64,000 nt of DNA, taken from assembly GCA_038244655.1 (NCBI GenBank), contig JBBRTG010000010.1:12303-76302 (forward strand), in the 5' to 3' direction. Shown piece after piece: positions 4,228 to 34,243 of the stretch. How positions within the stretch are numbered: the first letter of the stretch is position 1; each line of letters begins with the position of its first letter. The notes under the pieces were generated by a model, which was not told the DNA's origin, did not search any database, and worked only from the letters and a program-made list of their open reading frames with translations. The translations under genes and the position numbers were made by a program. This DNA comes from Chitinophagales bacterium (GTDB lineage Bacteria > Bacteroidota > Bacteroidia > Chitinophagales > Chitinophagaceae).

Positions 4228-4254
4228 TTTGTAAATAATTAACCCAATTTATAT

Positions 4255-5349: not shown

Positions 5350-5393
5350 AATAAGAAAATTTTAAATTGTTTAATAATGTTTAAAAAATTGAA

Positions 5394-6893
5394 TTAATGC
5401 AAAGCCTTGTTTCTATCCCTTTCAATTTGAGGAATAGGAAAATGTTTATTTAAATCGTAATTAAAATTTGGTTTATCACTCAAAGCATGGGTTGCATAAT
5501 CTTTACCCCAGCGAATGAGATCGAAATAGCGGTGAAATTCAAAACCCAATTCAACACGCCTTTCATGCTGTATTGCCGTCCGTACATCAGACTGGCTCGT
5601 TGAAGTTATATCGGGCAAAAGTCCTGCCGGTATATTTGGATAGCCTGCCTGCAAAGAATCGTACTTGTAACTTTCCCTTGCTCTTTTTCTTACACGGTTA
5701 AGGGGAATTAAGGCATCGGCAGTATGGCCCGATTCATTCAAAGCTTCTGCATACCAAAGTAAAACATCCGCGTATCTTATAGCTATGTAATTAAGATTAC
5801 CATCGCTTTTATTTTGAACTTCCGATAGGGGCTGCTGATGTTTTCGTGTAAGATAACCGGTGCCTGGTGACCATGCTTTATCAAATATGCGGTTATTAAA
5901 CCAGGGCATAGAGTCGCGGCCAACTGTATAATCTAATCGCGGATCAACAATATTTGTCCCTGTTTTTTCAAATTCATCTACAAAATTTTGAGTAGGTGCA
6001 TTAAAGAAATATCCGTTGTCAATTTGCGGAGCGAAGTATTGATTTAATTCACTGCCAAGTTTTGGATCCTGGCCGGTTAAATGTTGTATTTCAAAAACTG
6101 ATTCTTTATTATTTTTAAATTTTTGATTAAAATTTTCGGTATAGAGTGGCATTAAATCATACACATTGCTGCTTACAATTTTTGCTGCTGTAATGGCAGC
6201 CTTATCCCATTTGCTTTCAAATAAATACGCTTTTGCCAACAATGCAGTAGCAGCGCCAGACGTAACCCTGCCAACATCCGGCCCGGTGTAACCTGGAGGA
6301 AGATTAGTTATTGCATCTGTGAGATCTGGTTCAATAACGGTTTCAAAAATTTGTTGTACGGGAGATTGTGGTATTTGTAATTGATCAGGAGGCAAGGGCG
6401 TTAAAATAACAGGCACATCTCCAAAAATATTGGTAAGCTCAAAATAATACCATGAACGTAAAAATTTTGCTTCACCAAGAATTCTTGCCTGTAATTCTTT
6501 ATCCATTTGTATTGGTGGCACTTTGCTTAATACGATATTGCAGCGTGTAATTCCATCATATAAAAGTGTCCATATACTCGCCAGATTTCCATTGGTGGAA
6601 TTAACGTTGAACTGATCTATAAATTCTATATCTGCCTGGTCGCCGGGATTACCTCCTTTTGCAGCATCATCAGATGCAACATCGCCAAACACCCATAACC
6701 TGTTATTATTAGAAGTTGTAAATGCGAGAGGCACGTAAGCTGCATTAATGGCCAATACTGCCTGGGCCTGTGTTTTATAAAATTCACTTTCTGGATATTG
6801 CCCCACTACATCTTTTGTAATGTATTTTTTGCATCCTGCTATGCTTAGCAGTAAGAATAGAATTAAAAATGTATTGATGATATTTTTTTTCAT
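5394..6893 (-). CDS. RagB/SusD family nutrient-uptake outer membrane lipoprotein
   Basis: SusD-like sequence throughout. I place the start at the ATG at 6891-6893 (MKKNIINTFLILFLLLSIAGCKKY, a lipoprotein signal). The 30-aa extension in the ORF track is read-through of a REP-like repeat. Confidence 0.9.
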   Translation of the reverse strand: MKKNIINTFLILFLLLSIAGCKKYITKDVVGQYPESEFYKTQAQAVLAINAAYVPLAFTTSNNNRLWVFGDVASDDAAKGGNPGDQADIEFIDQFNVNSTNGNLASIWTLLYDGITRCNIVLSKVPPIQMDKELQARILGEAKFLRSWYYFELTNIFGDVPVILTPLPPDQLQIPQSPVQQIFETVIEPDLTDAITNLPPGYTGPDVGRVTSGAATALLAKAYLFESKWDKAAITAAKIVSSNVYDLMPLYTENFNQKFKNNKESVFEIQHLTGQDPKLGSELNQYFAPQIDNGYFFNAPTQNFVDEFEKTGTNIVDPRLDYTVGRDSMPWFNNRIFDKAWSPGTGYLTRKHQQPLSEVQNKSDGNLNYIAIRYADVLLWYAEALNESGHTADALIPLNRVRKRARESYKYDSLQAGYPNIPAGLLPDITSTSQSDVRTAIQHERRVELGFEFHRYFDLIRWGKDYATHALSDKPNFNYDLNKHFPIPQIERDRNKALH

Positions 6894-6898
6894 ACGCA

Positions 6899-6955
6899 GC
6901 CTCACCCCAACCCCTCTTCTCCAAAGGAGTCCTTTCGGACAAAAGGAGAGAGACT
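6899..6955. repeat. REP-like hairpin repeat, copy R2 (long variant)
   Basis: gcctcaccccaacccctcttctccaaaggagtcctttcggacaaaaggagagag. Shares the aaggagtcctYtcgRac core with copy R3. Confidence 0.7.
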
Positions 6956-7001
6956 TGAAAGTCTTTGCAGATAAGTATTTCATAATAGTTTTAATTTTTT
7001 A

Positions 7002-7064
7002 ATAACACGAATTTGATGCACTAACCTGCCTGTCGGCAGGTTCGTATTTTATAATTCGTGTTAT
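7002..7064. promoter_or_regulatory. nested stem-loop in the SusC-SusD spacer
   Basis: Outer perfect 12-bp arms ataacacgaatt (7002-7013) and aattcgtgttat (7053-7064). They enclose a perfect 8-bp hairpin aacctgcc-tgtc-ggcaggtt (7023-7042). Confidence 0.65.
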
Positions 7065-7091
7065 ACTTTTCATTCAATCGTGTTTTATAAT

Positions 7092-10000
7092 TTAAAAATT
7101 CAAATTCAAACCTACTATATAACTCCTGGCACTTGGGTAAGTACCCCAATCAATTCCTGCACCTACATCTCCGCCATAGGTATCTCTTTTTACATTATCA
7201 CTTATGTGCATTTCAGGATCAAGACCGGTATAATTGGTTAGTGTCCATAAGTTTTGCCCGGTTACATACAATCTCAGGCTTTTTATCCGAAACCTGCTCA
7301 CAATTTTTCCCGGAATGGTATATCCTATCTGAAGATTTTTTAAACGCACATAAGATCCATCTTCAAGAAAGCGGCTGGATGGATATTTATTATTGGAAGC
7401 GCCATTGAAAGAAACCCTCGGCATCGTATTGCTTGTTCCCTCACCATGCCAGCGTTGATCATACACACGTTGTGTAACATTGAATGCACGATAGAACCCT
7501 TCAATATCCATATTCACCTGTGAATAAATTTTATTACCATATTGCCCCTGGAAGAAAACAGATAAATCAAAATTTCTGTATTCTAAATTGGCTGTTGCGC
7601 CGAAAGTATATTTTGGAATAGCGCTGCCGAGGAAAGTTCTGTCGTCTTCATTAATTACTCCGTCACCATTTTGATCTTTGAATTTTACATCACCGGGTTG
7701 TATATTTTTACCCTGATAAGCGCTGGCGAATACATCCGCCGCACTCTGAAAAATTCCTTCCTGTTCATAGAGATAAAATGATCCTATCGGATGGCCAACT
7801 GTAGTTAAGGTTGCATTATAGTTATTATCAATTCTTCCCCCGGCTATTGGCTGTCCATTACTTAAAGAAAGGACTTTATTTTGAAGGGTAGAAAAATTTA
7901 CACCAACATCATACTTAAACAAGTGAGCATTATTTTTATAATTAAGATCCACTTCGAGGCCTTGATTCTGCACTTTGCCTGCATTTAAATAAGGAGGTTT
8001 TGCACTTCCGCCTATCAATGGAAACGGTATAGGAATCAGCATGTCTGAAGTAGTTTTAATAAAATAATCTACTGTCAGGTTTAATTTATCTTCCCAAATA
8101 CCTACATCAATACCTCCATCTGCCTGGGTAGAAGATTCCCATTTTACTTTTGGATTACCAAGAGTTGCAATGGTTGATCCGGGATTGCTTATCGGGGTTT
8201 GGCCAAAAGGATAATTATAAAGATTTCCAATAATTGAAACGAATCCATAATCAGGAATTTCCTGATTACCCAACTGTCCGTAACTGGCTCTTAATTTTAA
8301 TTTAGAAATGGCAGGCAAATGATTCTGCACCCATTTTTCATTATGTGCATTCCAGCCTGCTGAACCTGAAAAGAATGTACCATATTGATTATCGGGACCA
8401 AACCTTGAAGATCCATCTCTGCGTACATTTGCCGATAGCAGGTACAAATTACGATATGAATAATTTGCATTACCAAAAAGGGAAAACAGTGCAGATTCAT
8501 TTTGGCTTTCAAAAGAAGTAGTAGAACCTATTAATCCATTTCCATTACCTAAATACCGAAAGCTTGAAGTTTGATTAGCAAAATCCCTGTCAGCGCCTCC
8601 ATGCAAATTATTTTTATTGCTGATTGCTTCAGTGCCGGCAAGAACAGATACATTGTGAACAGCATTAAATGTTTTATTATAACTAAGTGTATTATTCCAA
8701 ACAATATTCATGTTCGTGGATGTACTAACGGTTAGCCTGCTTGGATTATTTATACGCAGGTTGGTTCCATAATTTTCATCGAAACGTTTATCGTTAGTTA
8801 TAATTGCATCAAGACCTATATCAGATTTGAATTTTAAATTTTTAAGAATTTTATACTCTGCATATAAATTTGAAAACACGCGGTACTGAATTTCTTTATT
8901 ATCTGTTTTATTTGCCAAAGCAACAGGATTATACCCATCACCAAAAAAAGCAGGATATGCAGGAAGATCAGAATAAACACCGGCGCTGTCATAAACCGGT
9001 ATAGCAGGCGTACGAAATAATGCATAGCGAACAACGCTTCCACCGTTTCCTCCGTATCCATCGCCGGAGCTGCCTATTGCATTTTTTTTGGAATATGAAA
9101 GATTAATATTATTGGCAATGCTTAACTTATCATTGAGATCAATATTCAACTTAGATAATATTGAATATCGCTCGTACGATGAATTAAGAATAATGCCATC
9201 CTGTTTAAAATAATTTCCTGAAATGTAATAGAGCGTTTTATCATTCCCACCCCTTACAGATAACTGATGACTTTGAATTTGACCGTTTTGAAAAATTGCT
9301 TTTAACCAATCGGTATTTGCAATAGGCAAAGTGGAAGGAATTTTAGGCCGTATCAATGCAGGATTAGTAACACCCGCATTATCATTATCAGCAGCTTCAT
9401 TATACAATTCTACATACTCGGCTGTATTGGCCATCTTGGGTAAGTCTCCATGCGATTGAAAACCACCATACCCGGAATAATTAAATTGTGCCTTGCCTCT
9501 TTTGCCAGCTTTAGTTGTTATCAACACCACCCCATTAGCCGCACGTGAACCATATATCGCCGCTGAAGAGGCATCTTTTAAAACAACTATAGATTCAATA
9601 TCATTAGCAGAAAGAAAATTTATTCCATCCTTTGTTGGTATGCCATCTACAATAAAAAGAGGATTGTTATCATTTATAGTTCCTACGCCTCTTATCCTTA
9701 CTACAACCCCATCGCCCGGCTGGCCTGTGTTCTGTGTTATTCTTACGCCGGGCACTTTCCCTTCTAATGCCTGGTCAACACTAAGCACTGGTAATTTAGA
9801 AATGCCCCCAACGTTTACAACAGATACCGAACCTGAAAGATCACCACGCCTGCGGCTTTGATACCCAACTACCACTACCTCACTTAATTCCTTATTGGTA
9901 GATTCCATTTGTACATTTAATGATGTTTCACCTTTTACTGATACTTCAATAGTTTTATAACCAACTGTACTAAATACCAATACACCATTATCTGGTACAT

Positions 10001-20879: not shown

Positions 20880-23800
20880 CTATTTTAAAATTATTTTTTG
20901 AGAAAATTCTTCATTGTTGGTTATATCAACAATTCGTACAATATACATACCGGGGCTCATTGCTTTTGTTCTTGCAATTTGTAATGTATTACTAAAGCCG
21001 CTTGTAAAAGTTGCGTCTTTTATAAGCTGGTTTATTGTATTGAGCAATGATATTTTATAAACATGATTTTGTGAATTTTTGAAATCAATATTTATTATAT
21101 CGGTAACCGGGTTTGGATAAACATGTATGCCGGTTTTCGTTTCATTATTCGTAAGCAAAATAGTATTACTGTAGGTAAAAGTATTATTATCATAAAAGAT
21201 TTTCAGCCTGTAAAAATTATTACCAGGATCAGGTTTTGTATCTAAAAAATTATACTGTTGCTCTGCAGCAGAATTACCCCCAGCATCTTTTCTTCCCATT
21301 TCTGTAAAGTTGCTGTAATTGTTTTTGCGTTCTATAACATAATTTTTAATGTTATGCTCGCTGGTGGTTTTCCAGTTTAATAAAATTTTATCATTAATAA
21401 ATTTACCCCCAAATGCAGTTAAGGATACCGGCAGAATTACAAAACATTCTCCATTAAGATTATAGTTGTACGTTCTTTTTACACAACCGCTGTTCACTTC
21501 AATATGGCAAATATATATTCCTGTATCTGATGGTAAAACATCAGGTATGAAATAGCTGGATCCTGATCCAATGAAAGTACTATCTGTGTCGCCTGCATTT
21601 GTTTTTTTGTACCATGCATAAGTTGAGTTATAAATACTGTCGACCCTTAATGTAGTAGGATTGAGAAGGCAATTGGAGCTGGAAATAATTTCATCATCAG
21701 ACAAGGGCAAAATACTTGCATCGCCCAAAGTGGCGTTACCACAGGCATCCAAAGCCCTTAACCTTATTAATGAATAAGTGGTACCGTTATTAATATTAAA
21801 TATGGGAGTGGATTGCGGCACAGTAACTATGGAAGGAACCGAAGGATTGCTTCCGATAATTGAATAACTAAAAGGCCCTACGCCATCAGAGGCTACTGCC
21901 CCCACACTAAACCCGTTTACATCGCATTGGTATGCAGATGACCGGTTTAAATTTGGAAACTGGTAAGGCGGCACCGTTACGGTATCATACAAATAAATGT
22001 TACAGGGATCATTTGCTTTATAACTAACAATATAAGTTGCTGGCCCCAGGTCACTAAAAGTATATACACTATCCAAAACAGAACTGGGATTTAATTTTGG
22101 CGATAATGTGACGTTATCTTTTTTAACAATCCTAACGGTTAGTGAACCCATGTTAGACGCAGCAGTAGTTTTAATATCACCCGAACCATTAGCCCATGTG
22201 CCGCCCGGGCACTTGGCAATTACTGACGGACTGTGAGTAAGATATCCTACAATAGTTCCTACCGTAACTGAATCTTTATTTCCGCATTTATCAGTCGCTA
22301 CAATTTTATATGTTCGCCCTGCAATAACCCCAGGTATGCTATCTATATAAATACTGCTGCTATTATAACTGCTGTTATAAAACAAACTACCATTTGGATC
22401 ATACACTTTAATATTCACCGGCAAAGATTCTCCAATCACTGTAATAGTAAATTTAGAATATCCGTAAGCACAGGATTTATTTGAAGTGACAGTTATGTTT
22501 AATGAGTTAGGTAATTGGGTAAAACATCTTGTTATAGTAGTATCATAACAACTATTAATAATTTTTATACAATAAGATCCATACAGCAAACTATCAAATA
22601 TCCCTGTTGCATTGCAACTTATTTGAACGTTATTACTATCATAGATGCAAAATTGCGGATTGGTAAGATTAAACTGATTAATAATTTTTGCAGTAAAAGT
22701 GGCGCAATCATAATTACTGGTAATTACACTGCTGTTTACAGAAGGAACAGGGCGTATAGCCGTAAAGCAATTTGTAAATGTCGTATCGGGGCAATTATTT
22801 TTTGATTTTATACAATAAGAACCATACGAAAGATTATCAAATCTGCCGGTGCTATCGCAACTAATTAATGAATCAGCATTATTATACAAACAATAATAAG
22901 CGTTTTTTAAAATAGCGCTGCTTGCTGTCGCTGTAAAAGTGGTGCAGGTTTTATTGATCATTGCAATAGCAATATCATTTATAATTATAGGCGGTCCCGC
23001 ATCAAAGCACCTGATAATTGTACTATCAAAACATGAGTCATGAATATGTACACAATAATGCGCTAATGCAAGACTGTCAAATACACCAGTGTAATTACAA
23101 CCTATCAATCCACCAATGCTATCATATAAGCAATACCTTGGATTAGTAAGACTATCTCCGCCAACAATAATTTTAAAATGTGAGCAGTCGAGATACGAAG
23201 GAATGATTGAATCAACAATGGGTGCAGGACGTTTAGCATTAAAACATCTTGTAATAGTTGTATCAATACAACCATCCTTGGTTCGGATGCAATAATTTCC
23301 ATAGGCCAGGCTATCAAATACGCCTGTTGTATTACAGGTTATTAATGTATTTGCAGAATCATATAAACAATAATTCGGATTGGTTAAACCATTTTGCCCA
23401 GTGATACCGGCGGTGAAAGACTGGCAAATTTTATTACTTATAACAACATTATCTCCAACAGATACAGATGGTGTTGCAATAAAACATCTTTGTATTGAAG
23501 TATCCGTACATTCATCAAATGCATGTATGCAATAACTGCCATAAGGAAGATTATTAAAAATTCCCGTTGAATTACATCTTAATAAAACATTATTGTTATC
23601 ATATAGGCAGAAAGCCGGGTTGAAAAAATTTACAATGTTGGTTAATGATGCTGAAAATGAGTTACAGGTTTTATTAAAAATATTTACAATGGCGCCTACA
23701 GAAGGAATTAAATTAACGGAAGCTGTAGTTTTTTTAATTATACCACATGCATCCTTCGCAATAATATCGAAAGTAGAAACTCCTGCAAGGTTAAATGTAA

Positions 23801-24548
23801 AGAAGGGGCTTGCAGACCAGATAGTATCGCCGGGCTGCCTTACAATACCATAAGTAAAACCCGGGATTCCTCCTGCTATACTTATATTGCCGCGGCTATC
23901 AGCAACTTTTATATAACCCGTTGCAGAATCACAATTTATTTTATTGAACACCTCCGAATCAATCCGCCAGGTATAATCATTTATAGTGATTTGCCTTGTT
24001 TGAATTCCCCCACATGAGTCGGTTAATTGTATGCTGTAATTACCTGCAATTAAATTATTAAAAGAACCGGTGCTGTTTGATGTGCCTACGCCCATTGGTG
24101 ACGGAGCAACTATAGTATATACAAATGGTGATCTGCCGTTTTGCTGATCATTCATTGCAATACTTCCATTACTACCTTGATCACAGCTTACATCAATATG
24201 CGTTAATGTAAATCTTGGATCTTCATACGTTCCTGAAACTATTACGCCGGTTTTAGTGTAGGTACAGTTGGTAACAATATCGTTAATAACAATAGTATAG
24301 GTTCCTGCTGATAAACCGGTAATAGAATCGAGTGTAGTAAAATTGGAATTTACGGGGCCAATTGTTTTGTATTTGTAAGAACCTGAGCCGCCTGTAGCAA
24401 ACACTTTTATAGAACCTGTAGCAGCACAACGTGATTCATAGGTAGTAAATGTTGCGCTCAACTGCGAACAACTTTGGCTTTGAGAAGTTTTCGGGAAGAT
24501 GCTGCAGAAACAAAATGAAAGTAAAATAAATAAGTAAAATTTTTGCAT
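20880..24548 (-). CDS. T9SS type A sorting domain-containing repetitive surface protein
   Basis: 1222 aa. Signal peptide, SprB-like Ig-type repeats (GGSGSYKYK..., GVGPFSYSI...), five Cys-rich 80-aa repeats, and a C-terminal Por/T9SS sorting domain (VYPNPVTDIINIDF...GMYIVRIVD...). Confidence 0.88.
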   Translation of the reverse strand: MQKFYLFILLSFCFCSIFPKTSQSQSCSQLSATFTTYESRCAATGSIKVFATGGSGSYKYKTIGPVNSNFTTLDSITGLSAGTYTIVINDIVTNCTYTKTGVIVSGTYEDPRFTLTHIDVSCDQGSNGSIAMNDQQNGRSPFVYTIVAPSPMGVGTSNSTGSFNNLIAGNYSIQLTDSCGGIQTRQITINDYTWRIDSEVFNKINCDSATGYIKVADSRGNISIAGGIPGFTYGIVRQPGDTIWSASPFFTFNLAGVSTFDIIAKDACGIIKKTTASVNLIPSVGAIVNIFNKTCNSFSASLTNIVNFFNPAFCLYDNNNVLLRCNSTGIFNNLPYGSYCIHAFDECTDTSIQRCFIATPSVSVGDNVVISNKICQSFTAGITGQNGLTNPNYCLYDSANTLITCNTTGVFDSLAYGNYCIRTKDGCIDTTITRCFNAKRPAPIVDSIIPSYLDCSHFKIIVGGDSLTNPRYCLYDSIGGLIGCNYTGVFDSLALAHYCVHIHDSCFDSTIIRCFDAGPPIIINDIAIAMINKTCTTFTATASSAILKNAYYCLYNNADSLISCDSTGRFDNLSYGSYCIKSKNNCPDTTFTNCFTAIRPVPSVNSSVITSNYDCATFTAKIINQFNLTNPQFCIYDSNNVQISCNATGIFDSLLYGSYCIKIINSCYDTTITRCFTQLPNSLNITVTSNKSCAYGYSKFTITVIGESLPVNIKVYDPNGSLFYNSSYNSSSIYIDSIPGVIAGRTYKIVATDKCGNKDSVTVGTIVGYLTHSPSVIAKCPGGTWANGSGDIKTTAASNMGSLTVRIVKKDNVTLSPKLNPSSVLDSVYTFSDLGPATYIVSYKANDPCNIYLYDTVTVPPYQFPNLNRSSAYQCDVNGFSVGAVASDGVGPFSYSIIGSNPSVPSIVTVPQSTPIFNINNGTTYSLIRLRALDACGNATLGDASILPLSDDEIISSSNCLLNPTTLRVDSIYNSTYAWYKKTNAGDTDSTFIGSGSSYFIPDVLPSDTGIYICHIEVNSGCVKRTYNYNLNGECFVILPVSLTAFGGKFINDKILLNWKTTSEHNIKNYVIERKNNYSNFTEMGRKDAGGNSAAEQQYNFLDTKPDPGNNFYRLKIFYDNNTFTYSNTILLTNNETKTGIHVYPNPVTDIINIDFKNSQNHVYKISLLNTINQLIKDATFTSGFSNTLQIARTKAMSPGMYIVRIVDITNNEEFSQKIILK
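22521..23705 (-). repeat. five tandem 80-residue (240-nt) six-cysteine repeats inside the T9SS protein
   Basis: The first Cys of each unit falls at residues 295, 375, 455, 535 and 615. Each unit follows C-x18/19-CLYD-x7-C-x2-TG-x-FD-x-L-x-YG-x-YC-x6-C-x-DT-x4-CF. Confidence 0.85.
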
Positions 24549-24963: not shown

Positions 24964-25125
24964 TTAAGTTTTAAGTTTTCTTTTCAAATCATCCCAGTAC
25001 TTTCTGGGGCGCTCACTATCTGTGAGTATTTGAATTACGTCCACTACAGAGAAATACCATTTCTCCTGTTCTGCATCCCAATGGCTACGGATTTTTTTGC
25101 TTTCAAAAAGTTTGATATTGGGCAT
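24964..25125 (-). pseudogene. truncated BRO-N / antirepressor-like gene fragment (53 codons)
   Basis: My translation: MPNIKLFESKKIRSHWDAEQEKWYFSVVDVIQILTDSERPRKYWDDLKRKLKT*. It matches only the N-terminal module of the ~200-270-aa Bacteroidota BRO-N-type proteins as I remember them. Confidence 0.5.
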
Positions 25126-25213: not shown

Positions 25214-25306
25214 TTAATTCATGCCTGCTTCTTTATTTACTGCTTTGATGGTGAGAAAGATGTTTACGATTAAGAGAATTGTAAGGATGATTTGAATGGA
25301 GAGCAT
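25214..25306 (-). CDS. 30-aa hydrophobic mini-protein (paralog 1)
   Basis: My translation: MLSIQIILTILLIVNIFLTIKAVNKEAGMN*. About 80 percent nt identity to 25537-25635, and the differences preserve the reading frame. Confidence 0.4.
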   Translation of the reverse strand: MLSIQIILTILLIVNIFLTIKAVNKEAGMN

Positions 25307-25375
25307 TGATATGAATTATAGATTGTTATTGCTGTAATTAATTGTAGTAAAATCAAAAGATACTAAACCTAAAGT

Positions 25376-25512: not shown

Positions 25513-25635
25513 TTATGTTTCCGCTGTTTTATTTAGTTCATTGCCTGCTTCTTTATTCCCTGCTTTGAGCGTGAGAAAGATGTTTAGGATTAAAAAAATC
25601 GTGAGGATGAGGAGGATGATTTGAATGGAGAGCAT
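25513..25635 (-). CDS. 40-aa hydrophobic mini-protein (paralog 2)
   Basis: My translation: MLSIQIILLILTIFLILNIFLTLKAGNKEAGNELNKTAET*. It starts 30 nt after the stop of the PD-(D/E)XK gene, on the same strand. Confidence 0.4.
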   Translation of the reverse strand: MLSIQIILLILTIFLILNIFLTLKAGNKEAGNELNKTAET

Positions 25636-25665
25636 TAAGAGATTTTAGTTTTTAAGAATACGGTT

Positions 25666-26667
25666 TTATTTTTGAAACTTTGGATATATGCTTCTGAATA
25701 AAATTCCATTCGCTTCTAATGTCGTGATGTCTATTGATTTGACTTCTGATAAATCAGATTTGTATCTCACTTCAGCAACTTCTGACGGAATATAAATTTC
25801 TTCAATCTTCTTTATGTCTTGATGCTTGTAAAACTGCAATGAATCTTTTGAAATCTGATAATCAAATTTAATTTTGATTGATTGCTCTAAAGAATTTCCA
25901 AGCGTTCTACAAACAATGTTATTCAACTTGTCAGTAAGTTCAAAGTCGTCTTGAACTTTTGCAGTTATGCTGTCAATGATTTGTTGAATATTTTTTCCTG
26001 TATTGTTTTGCCTGATAAAAACAGATGCAATCAAAACCTGTGTGTCTGTCGGTGGATTTAATTGCTCGGCTGAAAATGTGTGTATGCGTTCAAAGTTTGA
26101 ATTGCTTTTCACTTCAATTTTTTCTGCTCCAGAATTGAAATCAAATTTTTCCTCTGGTATGCTGTGCCAATAGTTCAATAGAGTTTTTGGATTTGTTGAA
26201 CTCTCAATTAAGAAAAGTTCTGTCCAAAGTCCGTGAACTGTATTTGTTGGAGTGTCATTAAGAGAACGAAAAACTTCAACGAACTTGTTTATCGTCTCAA
26301 CAACTTGCTCTTGTGTCGGTTTAATGTTCAATGCTTTCACGAATGATTCTGCAACACGAAGAAAATATTCTCGCAAGTGTCTGTCCGCACTTGTGAATGT
26401 AACAACTGTGAAAGTTTGAAAACTTTCTTTTCCGTCCTCTGAAATTTTGCATTCAATGTTTTGCAGAAGTTGTAAATACTTCAAGCGAAAATTTTTGAGA
26501 GAAATATTTCTCAACCGATTTGCAACTGATAAAAGCAAAACAGGATTTCCTTCAATGTCAATCGCAACTCTGAAATTTGGAAAGTCAGGAATAGGAATAG
26601 CATTGAAAACTTTTTGGTTGTCTTCGTCAGGAATTACAAGCGTATCATATAGCTCAACTAAGTTCAT
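25666..26667 (-). CDS. PD-(D/E)XK motif protein (putative nuclease subunit of the defence operon)
   Basis: 333 aa. E150 (GLWTELFLIE), D176 and E185-V-K187 (FDFNSGAEKIEVKS, nt 26107-26142) form a classical E...D-xn-ExK pattern. Overlaps the Z1 gene by 4 nt. Confidence 0.7.
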   Translation of the reverse strand: MNLVELYDTLVIPDEDNQKVFNAIPIPDFPNFRVAIDIEGNPVLLLSVANRLRNISLKNFRLKYLQLLQNIECKISEDGKESFQTFTVVTFTSADRHLREYFLRVAESFVKALNIKPTQEQVVETINKFVEVFRSLNDTPTNTVHGLWTELFLIESSTNPKTLLNYWHSIPEEKFDFNSGAEKIEVKSNSNFERIHTFSAEQLNPPTDTQVLIASVFIRQNNTGKNIQQIIDSITAKVQDDFELTDKLNNIVCRTLGNSLEQSIKIKFDYQISKDSLQFYKHQDIKKIEEIYIPSEVAEVRYKSDLSEVKSIDITTLEANGILFRSIYPKFQK

Positions 26668-28931
26668 GCTCTGTTTTCAGGTTGGCGAATAATGTCTGTG
26701 CCAATGTGTTCGGGAATCCATATTGCAAGTGTGGGAACACTTGTGTAATCTGTATCACGCAAATTCAAAAGATGAACCTGAATTGAAACAAGATTTGCAT
26801 TTTTAATTTCCGAATCGCCAGGATAAACATCTCCGATTCTGAACTGTGATGTGTCTTTGGTTGGTTGCTTACCTTGAAAGAGTTGTTGAATTTCATCGTT
26901 ACGAGTTAATCTACGAGTTCTTCTTGTCCAGTCGTTCAAACTTCTTGCACTCATCAAGTAGATTAAACATTCTTCGTTTGGATGTTCAGCTAAATATCTT
27001 CTAAAAATTCCTCTTAAACTTGAATACGAAGCGGAATCACTTTCTCTTGTGAATTTTAATTTGTTCAGCAAGTTGCTCAAACAGTCCTGCAAACGAACTC
27101 TTGCAACAAAATGTCTTTGGTCTTGTGTTCTGTTGTTGTGTCCTTCATCAACTGCAAAACTGTTTTGAATTGGAGTTAAGAACTCAAACAGGTTTGTTCT
27201 GTTTGTGTCAATAAATCCTTCTGTGTCATGCGGTGCATTTATCCTGAACCATTCATCAAAGGTATCTCGGTCTAAGTTGTCATAAAGAATATTTGCTCTT
27301 GTCAAATTCAGCATCATATCCAACACTGCTTCTCTGTTCCAATTATCCAAAGGTTTGTTGTTGATGTCAAATTCTTCCAACTGCTCACGAACATTTTCTT
27401 CGTGGTCAATTATTGCGTTGTAAGAATCAATTGTAACTTGGTCAAGAAACACTCTGCAATAACCTAAGAACCCTCTCTTGTAACCAAAAAATCTTGCTCG
27501 CTGTTGTATCGTGTCAACATTTCCAACTCCTACATTTCTCGGCATGTATGTTACAGTTAATCCTTCAACTGTAAATCCTCTGTCCATTGATTGCCCTCCA
27601 ACAAGAATCCATGAATACGAATCTTGCCAATTGATTTGTGGTGTTGAACCTCGTCTTGAATTTACTTCAACGATTGGAGTGTATTGAATTGCATGAACCA
27701 ATTTGAAATCGGTTAATCTTTCAAAAGGTAAAATGTTTGGAACTGTTCTTCTCAAATCATCATACGCCTCTCTGAAATCAGCTATCAAAATATTTTTTTC
27801 TGCATCATCATTTCCTGTCAAGATTCTTCTCCAACTGTTACAAATTCCTCTTACCCATTCTGTGAATTGATTGTGGTCGCCTTGCAGTCGTGAAGGATGC
27901 ACAAGCATTGAACGGTTTCTTTGGTCTTGTAAAATTTCTCCCGCAACAACTCCCAAAAAGAAAACTCTCATTGCAGCAATCAAACTTTCTGGCGGTTCGT
28001 GTAACGGATGATTCGGTGCAGGTAAATCAGTCAAAGGAATTTCTTCAACAAGATGTGCTTCTTGTCGGAAAAAATCCATTCCTCCTGTGTATTCTGTTCC
28101 AGGTGTAAGCAACTTGATAAAGTTTGGAGAAAGCCGGTCAACTATGTTGATGAATAAATTCGCTTGCGGTGTTGCTGTGTATTGAACGAAAGTGTGATGT
28201 GTGAAAAGTCCTTTCAATCTTGTTATCCGTCTGTAAATTGTTGAAACATCACTCTCGGTCAAATCTTCAATGTCAATTCCTTGTCGTGCTGCTCTCCTCG
28301 CAAGTGTGTTCAAACTTGCTTGGTCTCCCTCGTCATCAATTATTAGTGTTGGCACTCCATTCAAATTAAGTCCGTCAAAAATTTCTGCAATGTTGAACAA
28401 GTGGTCTTTCTGCTTCATTACAGTTAGTAACAAAGTTCTGCATCTTTCATTTTGAAAATTTGGGTCAGCCCATTGTGCTAAAACTGTTTGAATTGTTTCT
28501 TGATGTTCTATCTCACTCGGATTTGGAATCAAAGTCCACTTGCGGTCAAATCGTGTGTCCAACCTTAGTTCTCGTCTCAACCGATTTGTTGACTGATTAA
28601 AAAGTGAAGTTGAAGTTCCTGCAATTACAATTACAATTTGATAATTGTTGTCCCGTGCTAACGCTGCAAGCGTTGTGAACGAAAGCGTTTTTCCGCTTTG
28701 CACATAACCAATTACAATTCCTGTTTCGCTGTGGGTTGGATTGTCAGGATTCCCACACACTTGCATGATGCGATATGTTTCATCCAAAACTCGTTGCCCA
28801 GCTTCATACAGATTTCTATTTCCGTCAATAAGATTTGAATTGCTGCGAAGCAATTCGTTTGTTTCATCACCAACAAAAGGATTCCATTGTTCGTTGGCAT
28901 CGTTGTCTTGAATTTCTATTACCTCTGGCAT
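26664..28931 (-). CDS. Z1 domain-containing helicase-like NTPase
   Basis: 755 aa. Walker A GYVQSGKT (28686-28709), Walker B/DExD-like LIIDDEGDQAS (28323-28337), and a Z1-type C-terminal core GGQSMDRGFTVEGLTVTYM...TIQQRARFFGYK. Confidence 0.85.
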   Translation of the reverse strand: MPEVIEIQDNDANEQWNPFVGDETNELLRSNSNLIDGNRNLYEAGQRVLDETYRIMQVCGNPDNPTHSETGIVIGYVQSGKTLSFTTLAALARDNNYQIVIVIAGTSTSLFNQSTNRLRRELRLDTRFDRKWTLIPNPSEIEHQETIQTVLAQWADPNFQNERCRTLLLTVMKQKDHLFNIAEIFDGLNLNGVPTLIIDDEGDQASLNTLARRAARQGIDIEDLTESDVSTIYRRITRLKGLFTHHTFVQYTATPQANLFINIVDRLSPNFIKLLTPGTEYTGGMDFFRQEAHLVEEIPLTDLPAPNHPLHEPPESLIAAMRVFFLGVVAGEILQDQRNRSMLVHPSRLQGDHNQFTEWVRGICNSWRRILTGNDDAEKNILIADFREAYDDLRRTVPNILPFERLTDFKLVHAIQYTPIVEVNSRRGSTPQINWQDSYSWILVGGQSMDRGFTVEGLTVTYMPRNVGVGNVDTIQQRARFFGYKRGFLGYCRVFLDQVTIDSYNAIIDHEENVREQLEEFDINNKPLDNWNREAVLDMMLNLTRANILYDNLDRDTFDEWFRINAPHDTEGFIDTNRTNLFEFLTPIQNSFAVDEGHNNRTQDQRHFVARVRLQDCLSNLLNKLKFTRESDSASYSSLRGIFRRYLAEHPNEECLIYLMSARSLNDWTRRTRRLTRNDEIQQLFQGKQPTKDTSQFRIGDVYPGDSEIKNANLVSIQVHLLNLRDTDYTSVPTLAIWIPEHIGTDIIRQPENRA

Positions 28932-28933
28932 AT

Positions 28934-30472
28934 CTATTCGGGATTACTTAAATAATTTATTAGCTCATTAAAATTTCTTCTGACTTCCAATTGTGTTTTT
29001 GCTCCGCTTTCTCTTGCAAGAACTTCTGAAAGTCCGAATGCTGCTGCAATGCGAAGTATCGGTTCAATCTTATTGCTGTCAACTCCTGTAAACTCTACCA
29101 TGAACGGATGAGTTAATGATAAACGAATTCCTACTTGCCGAATAGAAGTATTATTTGATTTCTCTTTTATCAAGTGGTCGCCAACTTCAATCAATTCTTT
29201 TAGTGAGGGATCATACGAAAGCTCAATTGAAATATTCCATGTCATTTTGTTGAAACGAACTTCAAACTCACGATGAATTGTTTTTTCTGTTTTGCTTAAC
29301 TCTTGTTTTTCTTCTGCTACTACTGGATTCTCTCGCAACTCTGTCAATGCTTCAGGAACTTTCTTTTCTAATTCATCAACGGTCTCATCCAATGCTTTTT
29401 TTGCTGCCTTGTATTCTTTCTCGGTTGCTCTCACTCTGTATTTCTCTGCTTGTTGTAGCAATGGAAAATCCTTGTGTTCTAATTCGTCTCTCAAACATTG
29501 CAGAAATACTTCTAAGTTTTCATCCCATTTAATTCCCTTCTTGGTGAAGATTACTTCAAAACCCTCAAGGTGTAATTCGCCAAATACTCTTTGATACCGA
29601 AAGCTATTTGGGTTTCCGAAAATATATTCAGGCCTAAAACCATTATCAAAACTTCCTTCTATTACTCTGCCTCTACGAAATAATGCAAAGCCCGCTTCTG
29701 ATGTTGACGCTTTCTCTCTGATTGCAACAAATCCATTAACACTCAAACCGTCATGGACTGGAAAATTTATTTCTTTTCTCCATACGATTGCTTCTCCCTT
29801 CGGCTCACTATATTTCGGTGCTTTCAGAATTTTTGGCTCTTGATAATTCAATTCTTCATTGTCAACTTTCAGAATCAAAATTCCATTGCGAATAAATTCT
29901 CTATAAATACTTTTCAAGTGATCTTTCACTTTACCAAGTCCTCTTCGTCTCGGCATCTTATTTACATTACTTAATTCAATGATTGTATAGTGATGATTTT
30001 TGATTGCAATTTTTGTTTCAACTTCTAATTCTTCAATTTTCTTTTCAAAGATTTTTTTCATGTTGAAATGAACTGACTTCTCTACTGTTTCTCCCAATGC
30101 TTTTGTTCTTACTGTCCATTCATCGGAAAACCAACATGCCGCTGATTTCATTCCCATTCCAAATTCTGATAAACCACTGGTATCCGGTGGCGCCTCTGCT
30201 GCTTGAAATGCTCTCTCATAATCGGTATCACTGATTCCTGCGGCATTATCTCTAATTGTAATTTTATTTTCAACATCGTTAATTTCAATCTTTACTTCAA
30301 GTTTAAAATCTTTTCCATTTACAGCTTTTAACTCTTTTTCATTTAAAAGATAACTGGAAATGGCATTGTCAACGAATTCAGCTAAAGCAAACCATGTTTC
30401 ATATTCCAAAAATTTTAGAACAGAAAGTATAGTAGTTTGTGGACGTATGTTAATTTTATTATACAACTTCAT
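28934..30472 (-). CDS. GHKL-superfamily ATPase (HATPase_c_3 / MutL-MORC-like)
   Basis: 512 aa. Bergerat-fold motifs: N-box EFVDN (30365-30379), G1 IRDNAAGI, G2 SEFGMGMKSA. The C-terminal ~300 aa has no motif I recognise, apart from a coiled-coil-like stretch. Confidence 0.85.
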   Translation of the reverse strand: MKLYNKINIRPQTTILSVLKFLEYETWFALAEFVDNAISSYLLNEKELKAVNGKDFKLEVKIEINDVENKITIRDNAAGISDTDYERAFQAAEAPPDTSGLSEFGMGMKSAACWFSDEWTVRTKALGETVEKSVHFNMKKIFEKKIEELEVETKIAIKNHHYTIIELSNVNKMPRRRGLGKVKDHLKSIYREFIRNGILILKVDNEELNYQEPKILKAPKYSEPKGEAIVWRKEINFPVHDGLSVNGFVAIREKASTSEAGFALFRRGRVIEGSFDNGFRPEYIFGNPNSFRYQRVFGELHLEGFEVIFTKKGIKWDENLEVFLQCLRDELEHKDFPLLQQAEKYRVRATEKEYKAAKKALDETVDELEKKVPEALTELRENPVVAEEKQELSKTEKTIHREFEVRFNKMTWNISIELSYDPSLKELIEVGDHLIKEKSNNTSIRQVGIRLSLTHPFMVEFTGVDSNKIEPILRIAAAFGLSEVLARESGAKTQLEVRRNFNELINYLSNPE

Positions 30473-31814
30473 GCTGATACATTATTAAATCATTCTGATG
30501 TTTCTTAACTAAATTGTTATTTGCTTTTTTATTGATAATTAATTTTTCAGCAATCAACTTAACAATTTTTGCATTTACAGCATTTCCTAATGCTTTAAAA
30601 GATTCATTTTCATTATCAAATAATTTCAATCCTTCCAAAGATTGTAGCCTTAATGCTTCTTCCTTTGTAATATACCTGTCTTCCCAACCAATAATAGGAA
30701 TTTGTGTAGAAGGAACAACTAATGAAGGAAAGCAATCAGCTTTCTTTATTCTTATCCCAGATGCTCTAAATTGTAAAATATAATTTGTAATTACTCTTTC
30801 CGCAGCTCCTACATTCCATTCAAGTTTTTGCCAGCTTTGTGAAGGTAATTTTGAAATTTCTTGAACTACTGATTCAACATGCTTTTTATTTTCATCATAA
30901 AATTTTCTGTTTTGATTAATCCATTTTTTTTTCCATTCAGGAAATTTCTTTTTCGTTCTTGCATAGCTTGGTAATGATTTTAGTTGCTCCCTTTTTATCA
31001 AACCTTTCAAACTAATTCCAAAGTTTCCTTTTTGCTCTCCTAATTCACCTACTTTCATGTGATATGGAACTATATCATCAAATGTATAGGTAGCTCCGAA
31101 CTCCATACCCCATATAGGAAATCCTGGTATACTAATTTCTTGTGGTATATTATTAATAAATTCCTGCCAGAGTTTTATGCAATCCATATATCGCTTGGGG
31201 ACCTTCTTTGCTCCTTGTGGATTTTCCTCTATAAATTGTTTAATGTCGAAAGAGTTTACTTTAAATCTATCTACCTCATCGAAGCTAAAATGATCTAACC
31301 CCTCAAGGCTTCCGGCTATAAAGATTCTTTTTCTGTGTTGTGGAATTCCAAATTGATGAGGAGAATATTCTTTATGTGCAATTTTATAGCGTAACCCATT
31401 GGATAATTTTGTTTCCAGTTTTTTTACAATATATTCCCAAGTGCTTTTATTATTATGATATTGAATGAAAGGAACATTTTCTAAAATAAAGTATTTAGGA
31501 CGATGCCACTTAATAATCTTTAATATTTCATCAAACAAAGTTCCTCTTTCAATATCCATCATACCTTCTTGCTTTCCAGCATGAGAAAAGGGCTGACATG
31601 GAAAACCGGCACAGAGTATATCGTGCGTAGGAATTGAATAAATTTTTTCCTCTACAATTCCTCTAATATCACCGACTGGCTCTATACCCCAATTTTCCTT
31701 ATAAAGCTTTCGTAATTGCGAATTGATTTCACTTGCAAAAACACACTCATGTCCTAATTCATGTAGGGCTTTGTGAAAGCCGCCCAATCCAGCAAATAAA
31801 TCAATAAATTTCAT
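30459..31814 (-). CDS. dcm: DNA (cytosine-5)-methyltransferase
   Basis: 451 aa. Motif I FAGLGG, motif IV GFPCQPFS, motif VI ENV, motif VIII QHRKRIFI, a long variable region, and motif X GNAV. Confidence 0.93.
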   Translation of the reverse strand: MKFIDLFAGLGGFHKALHELGHECVFASEINSQLRKLYKENWGIEPVGDIRGIVEEKIYSIPTHDILCAGFPCQPFSHAGKQEGMMDIERGTLFDEILKIIKWHRPKYFILENVPFIQYHNNKSTWEYIVKKLETKLSNGLRYKIAHKEYSPHQFGIPQHRKRIFIAGSLEGLDHFSFDEVDRFKVNSFDIKQFIEENPQGAKKVPKRYMDCIKLWQEFINNIPQEISIPGFPIWGMEFGATYTFDDIVPYHMKVGELGEQKGNFGISLKGLIKREQLKSLPSYARTKKKFPEWKKKWINQNRKFYDENKKHVESVVQEISKLPSQSWQKLEWNVGAAERVITNYILQFRASGIRIKKADCFPSLVVPSTQIPIIGWEDRYITKEEALRLQSLEGLKLFDNENESFKALGNAVNAKIVKLIAEKLIINKKANNNLVKKHQNDLIMYQHEVV

Positions 31815-32245
31815 TTATGGTCTATTATTATTTTGTTAAGTAGCTTGCCCAAAGTATTTTCTTGTTTTGTTTTTTCAAGTTCACATTCCCAAACTGTAAG
31901 AACTTTCCAATCCAATTTGCTTAATAGTTTTTCATTTATTTTATCCCTTTCAACATTCCTTAAAATTTTTGGTATCCAGTAGTTTGTATTGCTCTTTGGC
32001 ATTTTATTGTATTTGCAATTTTTATGAGCATGCCAAAAACAACCATTTACAAAAACTACAGTTTTATATTTTGGAAGAACAATATCAGGATTACCTGATA
32101 AATTTTTTTTGTGAATTTTAAATCTTAGACCATTCTTAAATAAAAAACTGCGAACAAGTAATTCAGGTTTTGTGTTTGTCTTCCTGATTTTACTCATTAC
32201 TTCGCTTCTTTTCTCTTTTGTAAATACATCCTTCATTGTGTTCAA
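31811..32245 (-). CDS. vsr: very short patch repair endonuclease
   Basis: 144 aa. RSEVMSKIRKTNTKPELLVRSFLFKNGLRF...PDIVLPKYKTVVFVNGCFWHAH is the Vsr signature. 4-nt overlap with dcm. Confidence 0.92.
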   Translation of the reverse strand: MNTMKDVFTKEKRSEVMSKIRKTNTKPELLVRSFLFKNGLRFKIHKKNLSGNPDIVLPKYKTVVFVNGCFWHAHKNCKYNKMPKSNTNYWIPKILRNVERDKINEKLLSKLDWKVLTVWECELEKTKQENTLGKLLNKIIIDHK

Positions 32246-32364
32246 AGATATTGAAATAGAGAGTGCAAGATTGGTTCTTTTTACTTTTATATTGTATTAA
32301 TTATGCGTTCTTCACCAACAACTTTTTGATCATTCATTTTGCAAGTGAAAATAACTGAAGGCAA

Positions 32365-32395: not shown

Positions 32396-32402
32396 CTTCT
32401 TG

Positions 32403-32477
32403 TCGGGGCGGCAAGATTCGAACTTGCGACCTCCACATCCCAAATGTGGCGCGATGACCGGGCTACGCTACGCCCCG
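32403..32477 (-). tRNA. tRNA-Pro (anticodon UGG)
   Basis: 75 nt, folded by hand. Acceptor CGGGGCG/CGCCCCG, anticodon stem CCACA/TGTGG with loop TTTGGGA, T-arm GCAAG-TTCGAAT-CTTGC. CCA is not encoded. Confidence 0.9.
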
Positions 32478-32512
32478 AAATTTATTCCTTATACAAATCA
32501 GGCCAAGGTTTG

Positions 32513-32601
32513 CGGAGAGGGTGGGAGTCGAACCCACGGTACAGTTTAACCCGTACGACGATTTAGCAAACCGTTCCTTTCGGCCACTCAGGCACCTCTC
32601 C
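32513..32601 (-). tRNA. tRNA-Ser (anticodon GCU)
   Basis: 89 nt. Acceptor GGAGAGG/CCTCTCC, anticodon loop TTGCTAA, long variable arm with a GTAC/GTAC stem, T-arm GTGGG-TTCGACT-CCCAC. Confidence 0.9.
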
Positions 32602-32809: not shown

Positions 32810-34243
32810 TTACATAGCAGCTAACTGCACCTTTTGCTGAAGCTCAATTACGCTTTCTTTAAACAAGGTATCGGTGTCCATAAGATCTTTAACCGTTTGG
32901 CAACTATGAATAACTGTAGTATGGTCGCGGCCGCCAAAATGCTCACCGATTGTTTTTAATGAATTTTTTGTAAATGCTTTTGCAAGGAACATAGAGATTT
33001 GCCTTGCCTGTACTATTTCGCGTTTGCGTGTTTTTTGTAACAGCTTTTCATAAGGCACGTCAAAATAATCGCATACCATTTTTTGAATAGTATCTATGGT
33101 TATTTCTTTTGATGATGATTTAATAAAATTTCTCAAAACTTTTTTTGCTAATTCAAGATCTATTTCCCGTTTATTTAGCGAAGATTGTGCCAACAGGGAA
33201 ATCAAAGCGCCTTCAAGTTCGCGAATATTATTCTGAATATTATATGCAATGTATTTCACCACTTCTTTAGGCATCTCCAGCCCGTCGTTCTTCATTTTCT
33301 TTTCAAGAATTTCAATCTTGGTATCATAATCAGGTATCTGCAAATCGGCGCTAAGTCCCCAGCGAAAACGGCTGAGCAATCTTTCCTGCACACCTTCCAA
33401 ATCTTTTGGCGGCTTATCTGAAGTAAGAATTAATTGCTTGCCGCTTTGGTGCAAATGATTAAAGATAGCAAAGAATGCATCCTGTGATTTTTCTGCACGG
33501 TTAAAAAACTGAACATCATCAATTATCAATACATCTATCAATTGATAAAAATGTATAAAATCATTTATAGCATTGTTGCGGCCGTGATCAACAAACTGGT
33601 TAATGAATTTCTCGGAGCTTACATACAATACCACTTTATTATTGTGAAGCCTTTTTACTTCATTGCCTATTGCTTGTGCAAGATGCGTTTTTCCAAGCCC
33701 AACGCCGCCATATATTACCAATGGATTGAATGAAGTAGAACCAGGTTTTTCTGCTACAGTTTTTCCTGCACGCCTTGCAACACGGTTACAATCGCCTTCA
33801 ACAAAAACATCAAATACATACACAGGATTTAACTGCGAATCTATCTGCATTTTTTTAAGCCCCGGAATTACAAAAGGATTTTTAACAGGATTATTTATAA
33901 CCAATGGGAAATCCATTTCATTATTTGAATATGATTTATATCCCTGCCCTGGAATGTCCATCATCAAAGGTTTATTATTGCTGTTGCCGCTGTCTACCAT
34001 AATGCGATATTCAAGTCGTGCCTCTTTACCCAATTCTCTTTTTAATGTTTTTGCAATCAGGTTTACATAATGCTCCTCAATATACTCATAAAAAAACTGG
34101 CTGGGTACCTGTATGGTTAATTTTTTTTCTTTTAATAAAACAGGAGAGATAGGCTCGAACCAGGTTTTGTAATGTTGCCATTCCACTATATCCTTTATAA
34201 TATTAAGACAATTATGCCAAACTGTTTCGCAAGCTTTATCCAT
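32810..34243 (-). CDS. dnaA: chromosomal replication initiator protein DnaA
   Basis: 477 aa. AAA+ Walker A GGVGLGKTHL, Walker B LIIDDVQF, and a C-terminal DNA-binding domain (GGRDHTTVIHSCQ). Confidence 0.98.
   Translation of the reverse strand: MDKACETVWHNCLNIIKDIVEWQHYKTWFEPISPVLLKEKKLTIQVPSQFFYEYIEEHYVNLIAKTLKRELGKEARLEYRIMVDSGNSNNKPLMMDIPGQGYKSYSNNEMDFPLVINNPVKNPFVIPGLKKMQIDSQLNPVYVFDVFVEGDCNRVARRAGKTVAEKPGSTSFNPLVIYGGVGLGKTHLAQAIGNEVKRLHNNKVVLYVSSEKFINQFVDHGRNNAINDFIHFYQLIDVLIIDDVQFFNRAEKSQDAFFAIFNHLHQSGKQLILTSDKPPKDLEGVQERLLSRFRWGLSADLQIPDYDTKIEILEKKMKNDGLEMPKEVVKYIAYNIQNNIRELEGALISLLAQSSLNKREIDLELAKKVLRNFIKSSSKEITIDTIQKMVCDYFDVPYEKLLQKTRKREIVQARQISMFLAKAFTKNSLKTIGEHFGGRDHTTVIHSCQTVKDLMDTDTLFKESVIELQQKVQLAAM

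Follow-up and report, generated by a model that had tools for sequence, protein, structure and literature searches.

The 64,000-nucleotide (nt) stretch of contig JBBRTG010000010.1 from a Chitinophagales bacterium that we analyzed here (the window) carries on its minus strand a compact locus encoding a C5-cytosine DNA methyltransferase (Dcm), a GHKL ATPase, a DEAD-Z1 ATPase, and a DUF4420 nuclease, preceded by a vsr gene. We read this locus as a self-contained, horizontally mobile, ATP-dependent restriction-modification (R-M) cassette based on 5-methylcytosine (m5C), a reading to which we assign a probability of about 0.7. Support comes from the family assignments of the proteins together with the catalytic residues conserved in 52 homologs, from the conservation of the cassette and the co-evolution of its GHKL, Z1, and nuclease genes (hereafter the trio), and from the mobility and defense genes found beside related loci as well as the tRNA-Pro-adjacent site of the window copy. 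Further support is provided by the hallmarks of a DEAD-Z1 motor, a distant relationship to the MZA anti-phage system, and the prediction already made for this operon type by Iyer, Abhiman and Aravind (Biol Direct 2008; PMC2292703). The gene content, the intact catalytic motifs, the tight co-inheritance, and the mobility of the cassette were all directly observed. The window locus is an intact copy of a widespread, predicted, and experimentally uncharacterized cassette, and there is nothing special in this particular copy. Throughout, motif and residue numbers refer to the window proteins and coordinates to the 64,000-nt stretch.

The five open reading frames (ORFs) are all intact, each ending in its single stop codon. 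In the order of transcription, they are vsr, encoding a very-short-patch T:G mismatch endonuclease (31811–32236, listed as an ORF of 144 aa at 31811–32245; Pfam Vsr); dcm, encoding the C5-cytosine methyltransferase (30459–31814, 451 aa; Pfam DNA_methylase); the gene for a MORC/MutL-like GHKL ATPase (28934–30472, 512 aa; Pfam HATPase_c_3); the gene for a DEAD-Z1 superfamily 2 (SF2) helicase-like ATPase, presumed to be a translocase on double-stranded DNA (26664–28931, 755 aa; Pfam Z1); and the gene for a DUF4420 PD-(D/E)XK nuclease, presumed to be the DNA-cleaving subunit (25666–26667, 333 aa; Pfam DUF4420). Successive genes overlap by 4 nt (ATGA) at vsr/dcm, 14 nt at dcm/GHKL, and 4 nt (ATGA) at Z1/nuclease, and 2 nt separate the GHKL and Z1 genes. 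A first-pass annotation made from the DNA letters alone had given these same coordinates, strand, and junctions; every motif it quoted sits at the residue it implied, and Pfam profile searches returned the family it had proposed for each of the five proteins. Its interpretation of the genes as a single unit is likewise borne out, both by the junctions and by the conservation of the cassette across phyla.

The methyltransferase matches Pfam DNA_methylase (E = 4.7e-60) and TIGR00675 (6.8e-56), and motifs I (FAGLGG, residue 7), IV (PC, within GFPCQPFS, residue 70), VI (ENV, residue 112), VIII (QxRxR, as QHRKR, residue 159), and X (GNAV, residue 410) are all present. The catalytic half matches M.HhaI at 1e-38, and the best PADLOC match, colinear over the full length, is DruM2, the methylase model of Druantia (5.4e-69). 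The target-recognition domain (TRD), at ~200 aa (about residues 171–375), is unusually long and returned no match to any solved structure in a PDB sequence search. For each core protein, residue conservation was assessed in a set of 52 sequences that covers at least 12 phyla; many TRD residues proved to be invariant throughout. Mean column identity was 0.49 for the methyltransferase (TRD included), 0.46 for the GHKL protein, 0.41 for the Z1 protein, and 0.29 for the nuclease. Since the methyltransferase is the most conserved component, its sequence conservation, including that of the ~200-aa TRD, points to either a single target shared by the family or a structural role for the enzyme. The Vsr protein is recognized by Pfam Vsr (3.4e-32), TIGR00632 (6e-43, residues 4–122 of the listed ORF), and the PADLOC Vsr model (4.9e-30), and its translation carries F-V-N-G-C-F-W-H-A-H.

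The GHKL protein matches HATPase_c_3 at 6.9e-17, with its motifs EFVDN, DNAAG, and SEFGMGMKSA at residues 32, 75, and 102. An N-terminal ATPase region is followed by a conserved middle region containing the invariant Lys311, a variable, charged helical stretch (~340–440), and a conserved C-terminal end. Residues that are invariant or nearly so include E32, D35, N36, D75, G79, G105, G107, K109, T163, R266, R267, R269, R295, and K311. Residues 199–512 returned only noise in a scan of the unassigned regions against Pfam at E ≤ 5, and the nearest PDB sequence, MutL, was not significant (E = 0.09). Some relatives have GHKL ORFs of ~1000 aa (loci L069, at 2201–5401, L038, at 6833–9940, and L072); in L069, the additional N-terminal part matches Pfam MTaX1 (methylase-associated X1).

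In the Z1 protein, the Pfam Z1 domain spans residues 316–525 (7.3e-40). The best PADLOC match is a REBASE-derived model named 'Type II helicase domain protein' (1.7e-46, residues 67–549), followed by MzaC (5.1e-30). The Walker A motif GYVQSGKT begins at residue 75 (with K81), DDEGD at 199, and QQRARFFGY at 476, the last overlapping the sequence DTIQQRARFFG (473–483). Invariance in 52/52 homologs was found for Q78 and K81 of Walker A, for D199, D200, E201, and D203, for T252 and T254 of a TAT motif, and for H345, R451, D473, Q477, R478, R480, G483, and Y484; H353 is kept in 47 of the 52. We also modeled the protein with AlphaFold2 (AF2). The best fold matches of the model (predicted local distance difference test, pLDDT, 65; predicted template modeling score, pTM, 0.39) were the SF2 translocases Mfd (4.8e-5), RIG-I, RapA, and EcoR124I HsdR, so that the model appears to back a general resemblance to SF2 helicases and nothing finer. 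Beyond the Z1 domain lies a family-specific C-terminal domain (~530–755), which among the candidates for the DNA-reading module is the richest in conserved polar and aromatic residues (R533, R545, W561, N577, R673, and Y703). When the PDB was searched with profiles of the whole protein and of residues 528–755, no sequence match appeared even at E ≤ 10. NCBI/UniRef records give several close homologs (P0043, P0069, P0088) the name 'alpha-1,4 polygalactosaminidase', which looks like a propagated misannotation.

The nuclease matches DUF4420 over its full length (1.8e-49). Glu150, Asp176, and Lys187 are invariant (52/52), and position 185 is Glu in 43 sequences and Asp in the other 9. The N-terminal region (residues 1–140) is a β-rich domain with almost no conserved polar or aromatic residues. 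Neither single-sequence nor profile searches of the PDB returned a sequence match, no PADLOC model matched the protein, and no PDB fold match emerged for its AF2 model (pLDDT 71): the top candidates, chains of influenza PA, were non-significant (E = 0.07).

To evaluate the conservation of the cassette, we scanned one genome per species with patterns derived from the Z1 protein alone, which yielded 80 loci with Z1 proteins of 33–69% identity. The ORFs of these loci were searched with hidden Markov models grown iteratively from the five window proteins, and the 61 loci with enough flanking sequence were counted. The 80 loci span at least 12 phyla, among them Bacteroidota, Acidobacteriota, Ignavibacteriae, Nitrospirota, Poribacteria, Cyanobacteria, Chloroflexota, Proteobacteria, Planctomycetota, Verrucomicrobiota, Armatimonadota, and a lineage of the candidate phyla radiation (CPR). 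All four of dcm, GHKL, Z1, and the nuclease gene occur in 55 of the 61 loci, and in 50 they stand in this order on one strand. GHKL and dcm adjoin Z1 in 60 loci and are mostly overlapping or a few nt apart from each other; dcm lies downstream or on the opposite strand in several loci (L048, L063, L083, and L096). Recurrence of this order in 50/61 loci, all retrieved by means of Z1 only, places the arrangement far outside what chance would give. In contrast to the first-pass annotation, which made Vsr integral to the system, vsr was present in only 13 loci, at variable positions and on either strand, and was absent from 48. The survey therefore defines a core of four genes, and vsr, given its rarity, is an accessory of the methyltransferase outside that core.

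Relatives of the Z1 protein are numerous: in a library clustered at 50% identity, thresholds of E ≤ 1e-3 and 1e-30 returned 5373 and 885 representative clusters, respectively, and nearly all of the best 150 clusters aligned over almost the full length at 36–59% identity. IMG/VR contigs with a full-length Z1 relative (L091–L111) carry all four genes in 20 of 21 cases, with order and strand kept in 19. The remaining contig, L108, shows just Z1 and the nuclease gene because it begins immediately 5' of the Z1 gene. The cassette also occurs on metagenome contigs with unrelated flanks, where integrase, insertion sequence (IS), and toxin-antitoxin genes lie nearby, and a plasmid copy adjoins HEPN, DUF262, and HNH genes. 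Overall, the distribution is patchy: it extends over at least 12 phyla, with copies on plasmids and on proviral contigs. Co-evolution within the trio, expressed as the correlation of pairwise-identity matrices, was tight (r = 0.85–0.91).

The survey also brought up a second Z1 subfamily of ~900–950 aa (L112–L153 in IMG/VR and L090 on a Priestia plasmid). Its members are paired with a DUF4420 nuclease and linked to Dcm and often Vsr, with 2–3 kb of one or more other genes between, and most of these loci have no GHKL gene.

The composition of the window locus corresponds to an operon type predicted from gene neighborhoods, without biochemistry, by Iyer et al. (2008; PMC2292703), who described a 'third type' of prokaryotic MORC/paraMORC R-M operon that combines a GHKL ATPase, an SFII helicase with a C-terminal DThhQXuRhFG motif, and a restriction endonuclease (RE)-fold protein with an E-D-ExK signature, frequently next to genes for a cytosine methylase and Vsr. 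Cited in the first-pass annotation, this work describes exactly the operon type found here. The window GHKL protein is an HATPase_c_3 member in which E32, N36, D75, G79, G105, G107, and T163 are invariant; D473-TIQQRARFFG-483 of the Z1 protein fits the helicase motif, with D473, Q477, R480, and G483 invariant; E150, D176, E/D185, and K187 of the nuclease supply E-D-ExK in 52/52 homologs; and linkage to dcm (60/61 loci) and vsr (13/61) is seen in the family, both genes being present in the window. We found no architectural difference from the published type, with the window GHKL protein classed as MORC-like in a comparison that does not tell MORC from paraMORC. Comparative genomics had thus brought this architecture to light by 2008; there are thousands of relatives, and Z1, DUF4420, and HATPase_c_3 each have a Pfam entry.

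The closest mechanistic precedent for the Z1 protein is CglI, an ATP-dependent translocating restriction enzyme of R2H2 composition. Its H subunit is the prototype of the DEAD-Z1 motors, in which Z1 forms the second RecA-like core, and is characterized by a Walker A motif with Gln, a motif VI of the form QxxR, and an H/H motif that opens a helical insertion in Z1; ATP-driven movement on DNA is needed for cleavage. The window protein shares the first two of these features and has a candidate for the third. Its Walker A motif has Gln in place of the usual Gly (Q78, 52/52), Q477-R478-A479-R480 reproduces the QxxR spacing, and H345 (52/52) and H353 (47/52) are 8 residues apart, as are H282 and H290 of H.CglI, a candidate correspondence drawn from the published description. 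In the AF2 model (pLDDT 65), these two histidines precede helices 353–372 and 376–394. The Pfam Z1 domain and linkage to a C5-methyltransferase are also common to the window locus and CglI/NgoAVII. In contrast, the R subunit of CglI, which combines a phospholipase D (PLD) nuclease with a B3-like DNA-binding domain, reads the site in place of the methyltransferase, and there is no GHKL subunit, whereas the window locus pairs a GHKL ATPase with a PD-(D/E)XK nuclease. No R-subunit-like PLD/B3 protein is encoded in the cassette, where the DUF4420 protein is the sole nuclease. The C-terminal domain of H.CglI (6F1S) was among the PDB chains that gave no sequence match to that of the window Z1 protein (E ≤ 10) and was absent from the top 50 fold matches of the low-confidence model.

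A more distant relationship links the trio to MZA (PADLOC 'mza'), a five-gene anti-phage system; SDIC2, which its authors describe as mza-like, confers at least 1000-fold phage protection. GHKL, Z1, and PD-(D/E)XK proteins occur in MZA in the same order and with similar sizes (profiles of 480, 806, and 326 positions, compared with 512, 755, and 333 aa), and MzaB, MzaC, and MzaD are the only NCBIfam matches of the trio. The scores, however, are 24.5, 125.7, and 22.5 bits, against equivalog cut-offs of 850, 1500, and 420. In PADLOC, the MzaB match has an E value of 2e-3 and MzaD finds no match. MZA moreover comprises MzaA through MzaE, where the window has the trio with Dcm and Vsr. No match to MzaA or MzaE appeared among the five cassette proteins in PADLOC, with the limit that for Dcm the best 25 of 62 matches were considered, all of them to methyltransferase families. 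To our knowledge, MZA has no methyltransferase. The resemblance suspected in the first-pass annotation is thus upheld as homology: each protein of the trio is a very distant homolog of its counterpart in the MZA core. Membership is not upheld, since the scores fall far below the cut-offs.

A second equivalence suggested there, with BsuMI of Bacillus subtilis, proved incorrect. A 2026 preprint presents BsuMI as a non-canonical McrBC system composed of a DNA-binding R1, a McrB-like AAA+ R2 (YdiS, 343 aa), and a McrC-like R3. The likeness of BsuMI and LlaI to the window locus is by analogy only: each has three restriction subunits and is NTP-driven, site-specific, and paired with C5-methyltransferases. 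A McrB-like AAA+ hexamer stands in place of the SF2 DEAD-Z1 protein and a McrC-like nuclease in place of DUF4420, R1 is a separate DNA-binding protein, GHKL is lacking, and the subunits are ~331 and 343 aa rather than 512 and 755 aa. The McrBC-type composition, compared by description, ruled out BsuMI as the identity of the cassette. For the vsr-dcm pair, the natural reference is E. coli, where the overlapping, co-transcribed C5-methyltransferase and vsr genes form an orphan pair in which Vsr offsets m5C deamination. The window genes also overlap; here, vsr precedes dcm, and the pair is joined to a three-gene effector module. Literature and PDB sequence searches returned no solved structure or biochemistry for the three effector families, in agreement with the first-pass statement that no mechanistic description was known; our fold comparisons contributed no more than a general SF2 likeness for the Z1 model, the nuclease model yielding no match. 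GHKL, MORC, and CglI all go unmentioned in a large 2025 review of R-M biology.

Based on the CglI analogy, general knowledge of GHKL ATPases, and the relationship to MZA, we propose how the cassette could work; the assembly of a complex, its sensitivity to methylation, translocation, and the role of each subunit are inferred on these grounds. Dcm would methylate a fixed target sequence in host DNA, and the resulting m5C would mark self, leaving the trio as the effector, a division of roles that the first-pass annotation had also proposed. Vsr, where present, would repair the T:G mismatches that arise from m5C deamination and thereby serve the methyltransferase rather than the effector. The trio would assemble into one complex. 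On an unmethylated target, the DEAD-Z1 subunit would hydrolyze ATP and translocate on double-stranded DNA, as demonstrated for the H subunit of CglI. A GHKL dimer could act as an ATP-gated clamp or licensing switch that holds or loops DNA and couples the motor to the nuclease, and the DUF4420 PD-(D/E)XK subunit would then cut the DNA. Our best guess for the DNA-reading module is the Z1 protein's C-terminal domain, with the N-terminal domain of the nuclease as a less likely candidate. A search for this module by co-variation with the TRD of the methyltransferase gave weak partial correlations, reaching at best 0.42 for the N-terminal half of GHKL.

Several observations weigh against this proposal. 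No TRD was found in the trio when its unassigned regions were scanned against Pfam (E ≤ 5). The methylated sequence could not be deduced from the DNA, k-mer avoidance in the window and the 80 related loci being generic; CTCGAG, for example, was no more depleted than GGATCC or ACATGT. Co-evolution of the methyltransferase with the trio (r = 0.64–0.69) indicates partial congruence, so that the methyltransferase may be swapped from time to time. The moderate-to-low confidence of the models (pLDDT 71 and 65) makes fold-level arguments weak, and our literature search found no experimental paper on a dcm-linked GHKL/Z1/DUF4420 cassette. Finally, given that MZA works, as far as is known, in the absence of a methyltransferase, a lack of methylation may not be what the trio senses.

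In one alternative, the trio is an MZA-like anti-phage effector that is not triggered by a lack of methylation, and Dcm has a role elsewhere, for example in protection from other restriction systems or in epigenetic regulation. Such a separation of functions could accommodate the restriction of NCBIfam relatives to MzaB, MzaC, and MzaD, the related Z1–DUF4420 pairs that have dcm at a distance of 2–3 kb or on the opposite strand and frequently lack a GHKL gene, and a methyltransferase tree only partly congruent with that of the trio. It is difficult to reconcile with the position of dcm, which adjoins GHKL in 60/61 loci, mostly overlapping it or a few nt away; tight linkage to one conserved methyltransferase family is what would be expected of a toxin/antidote-like R-M pair, and we find this alternative quite improbable. 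In another alternative, the cassette would form a Type III-like holoenzyme, in which the C5-methyltransferase would be the DNA-recognition subunit, as Mod is for Res, and the trio would have no sequence specificity of its own. The absence of a recognizable TRD in the trio is in line with such an arrangement, as is the position of dcm as the first core gene, overlapping GHKL by 14 nt and adjacent and co-directional with it in 50/61 loci. The methyltransferase is also the most conserved of the four proteins, with many invariant residues in its long TRD, whose divergence has its highest partial correlation with the N-terminal half of GHKL. However, the restriction complexes known to recognize DNA through their methyltransferase (Types I, III, and IIG) rely on N6-adenine or N4-cytosine enzymes, not on a C5-methyltransferase. 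The CglI site is read by the R subunit, four loci (L048, L063, L083, and L096) have dcm downstream or on the opposite strand, co-evolution of the methyltransferase with the trio is looser than within the trio, and MZA has the same trio with, as far as known, no methyltransferase. Overall, a holoenzyme of this kind appears unlikely.

We also considered, and rejected, a role in DNA repair rather than defense, in which GHKL would correspond to MutL, Z1 to UvrD, and DUF4420 to MutH, with Vsr fixing the T:G mismatches born of Dcm activity. The patchy distribution over at least 12 phyla, including plasmids and proviral contigs, argues against a repair module, and the neighbors of the cassette are integrases, IS elements, toxin-antitoxin genes, and other defense genes. 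Its closest characterized relatives, the CglI motor and the MZA-like SDIC2, are restriction or anti-phage systems. The formal analogy to MutL-UvrD-MutH/Vsr and the presence of vsr in the window lend the repair hypothesis some appeal, and Iyer et al. (2008; PMC2292703) considered that a few MORC/paraMORC systems were possibly recruited to mismatch repair. Nevertheless, Vsr is missing from 48/61 loci and varies in position and strand where it occurs, and we consider a repair function very improbable. An ATP-dependent, m5C-based R-M cassette is the reading of the locus with the best support.

The genomic setting of the window copy begins with the start of vsr. The listed ORF exists, but its TTG start at 32245 is probably wrong: the real start is probably ATG 32236, giving a 141-aa product, because the Vsr profile begins at residue 4 and TTG 32245 sits within the sequence TATCTTTG (32250–32243). 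Together with a TTG at 32268–32266, this box, which lies 6 nt 5' of ATG 32236, makes up a candidate Bacteroidetes-type operon promoter read from the sequence (32243–32268, minus strand); the consensus for such promoters is TTG...TAnnTTTG. Upstream of the cassette, all on the minus strand, are the genes for tRNA-Pro (tgg; 32402–32477) and tRNA-Ser (gct; 32512–32601) and dnaA (32810–34243), with both tRNA genes between dnaA and the cassette. A terminator-like hairpin with a T-run (32395–32364, minus strand) 3' of tRNA-Pro suggests that the operon is transcribed apart from the tRNAs. The cassette thus lies directly 3' of a tRNA-Pro gene, a typical site of island insertion. A search for island boundaries turned up neither an integrase nor a repeated copy of the tRNA-Pro 3' end.

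The 1.1 kb that follow the nuclease gene are free of ORFs reaching 100 aa. Just 3' of the nuclease gene, at 25222–25324 and 25542–25644, lies a direct repeat of 103 nt (76% identity), each copy of which contains a small hydrophobic minus-strand ORF (MLSIQIIL..., 30 and 40 aa). The gene-poor region before the next large gene also holds a 53-aa ORF (MPNIKLFESKKIRSHWDAEQEKWYFSVVDVIQIL...; 24964–25125, minus strand) that has no Pfam match and is perhaps what is left of a longer gene. The large gene (20880–24548) flanks the cassette and encodes a protein of 1222 aa with a Por_Secre_tail (type IX secretion) sorting domain, read as secreted and unrelated to the cassette; it has a weak SprB-repeat match and many Cys-containing repeats. 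No additional ORF was found inside the cassette, and no further candidate gene between tRNA-Pro and this secreted protein. As for short sequence words, CTAG is almost absent from the window, with 3 sites compared to ~52 expected under a Markov model (observed/expected 0.06), and CATATG, GTATAC, CAGCTG, and GATATC are also strongly depleted; no link of these words to the cassette was established.

A part for prokaryotic MORC-like GHKL ATPases in restriction systems was predicted in 2008 and is still a prediction. To it, our analysis adds that the four-gene cassette is extremely stable across phyla (55/61 loci, with its order kept in 50), that the methyltransferase, including its TRD, is the most conserved component, and that the analogy to BsuMI is wrong and that to MZA distant. 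Any intact member of the family, the window copy included, is a reasonable starting point for reconstitution. Tentatively, and at less than even odds, we suggest that the family could represent a mechanistically separate class of ATP-dependent restriction, in which a MORC-like GHKL clamp and a DEAD-Z1 translocase act together on DNA that carries the mark of a single, strongly conserved C5-methyltransferase whose TRD is long and conserved throughout the family, the methyltransferase perhaps being the recognition subunit. If this is true, the mechanism would be distinct from those of Type I, Type III, Type ISP, CglI, and McrBC enzymes, and the cassette would be the prototype, among prokaryotes, of the connection of MORC ATPases with cytosine methylation that is seen in eukaryotic genome defense.

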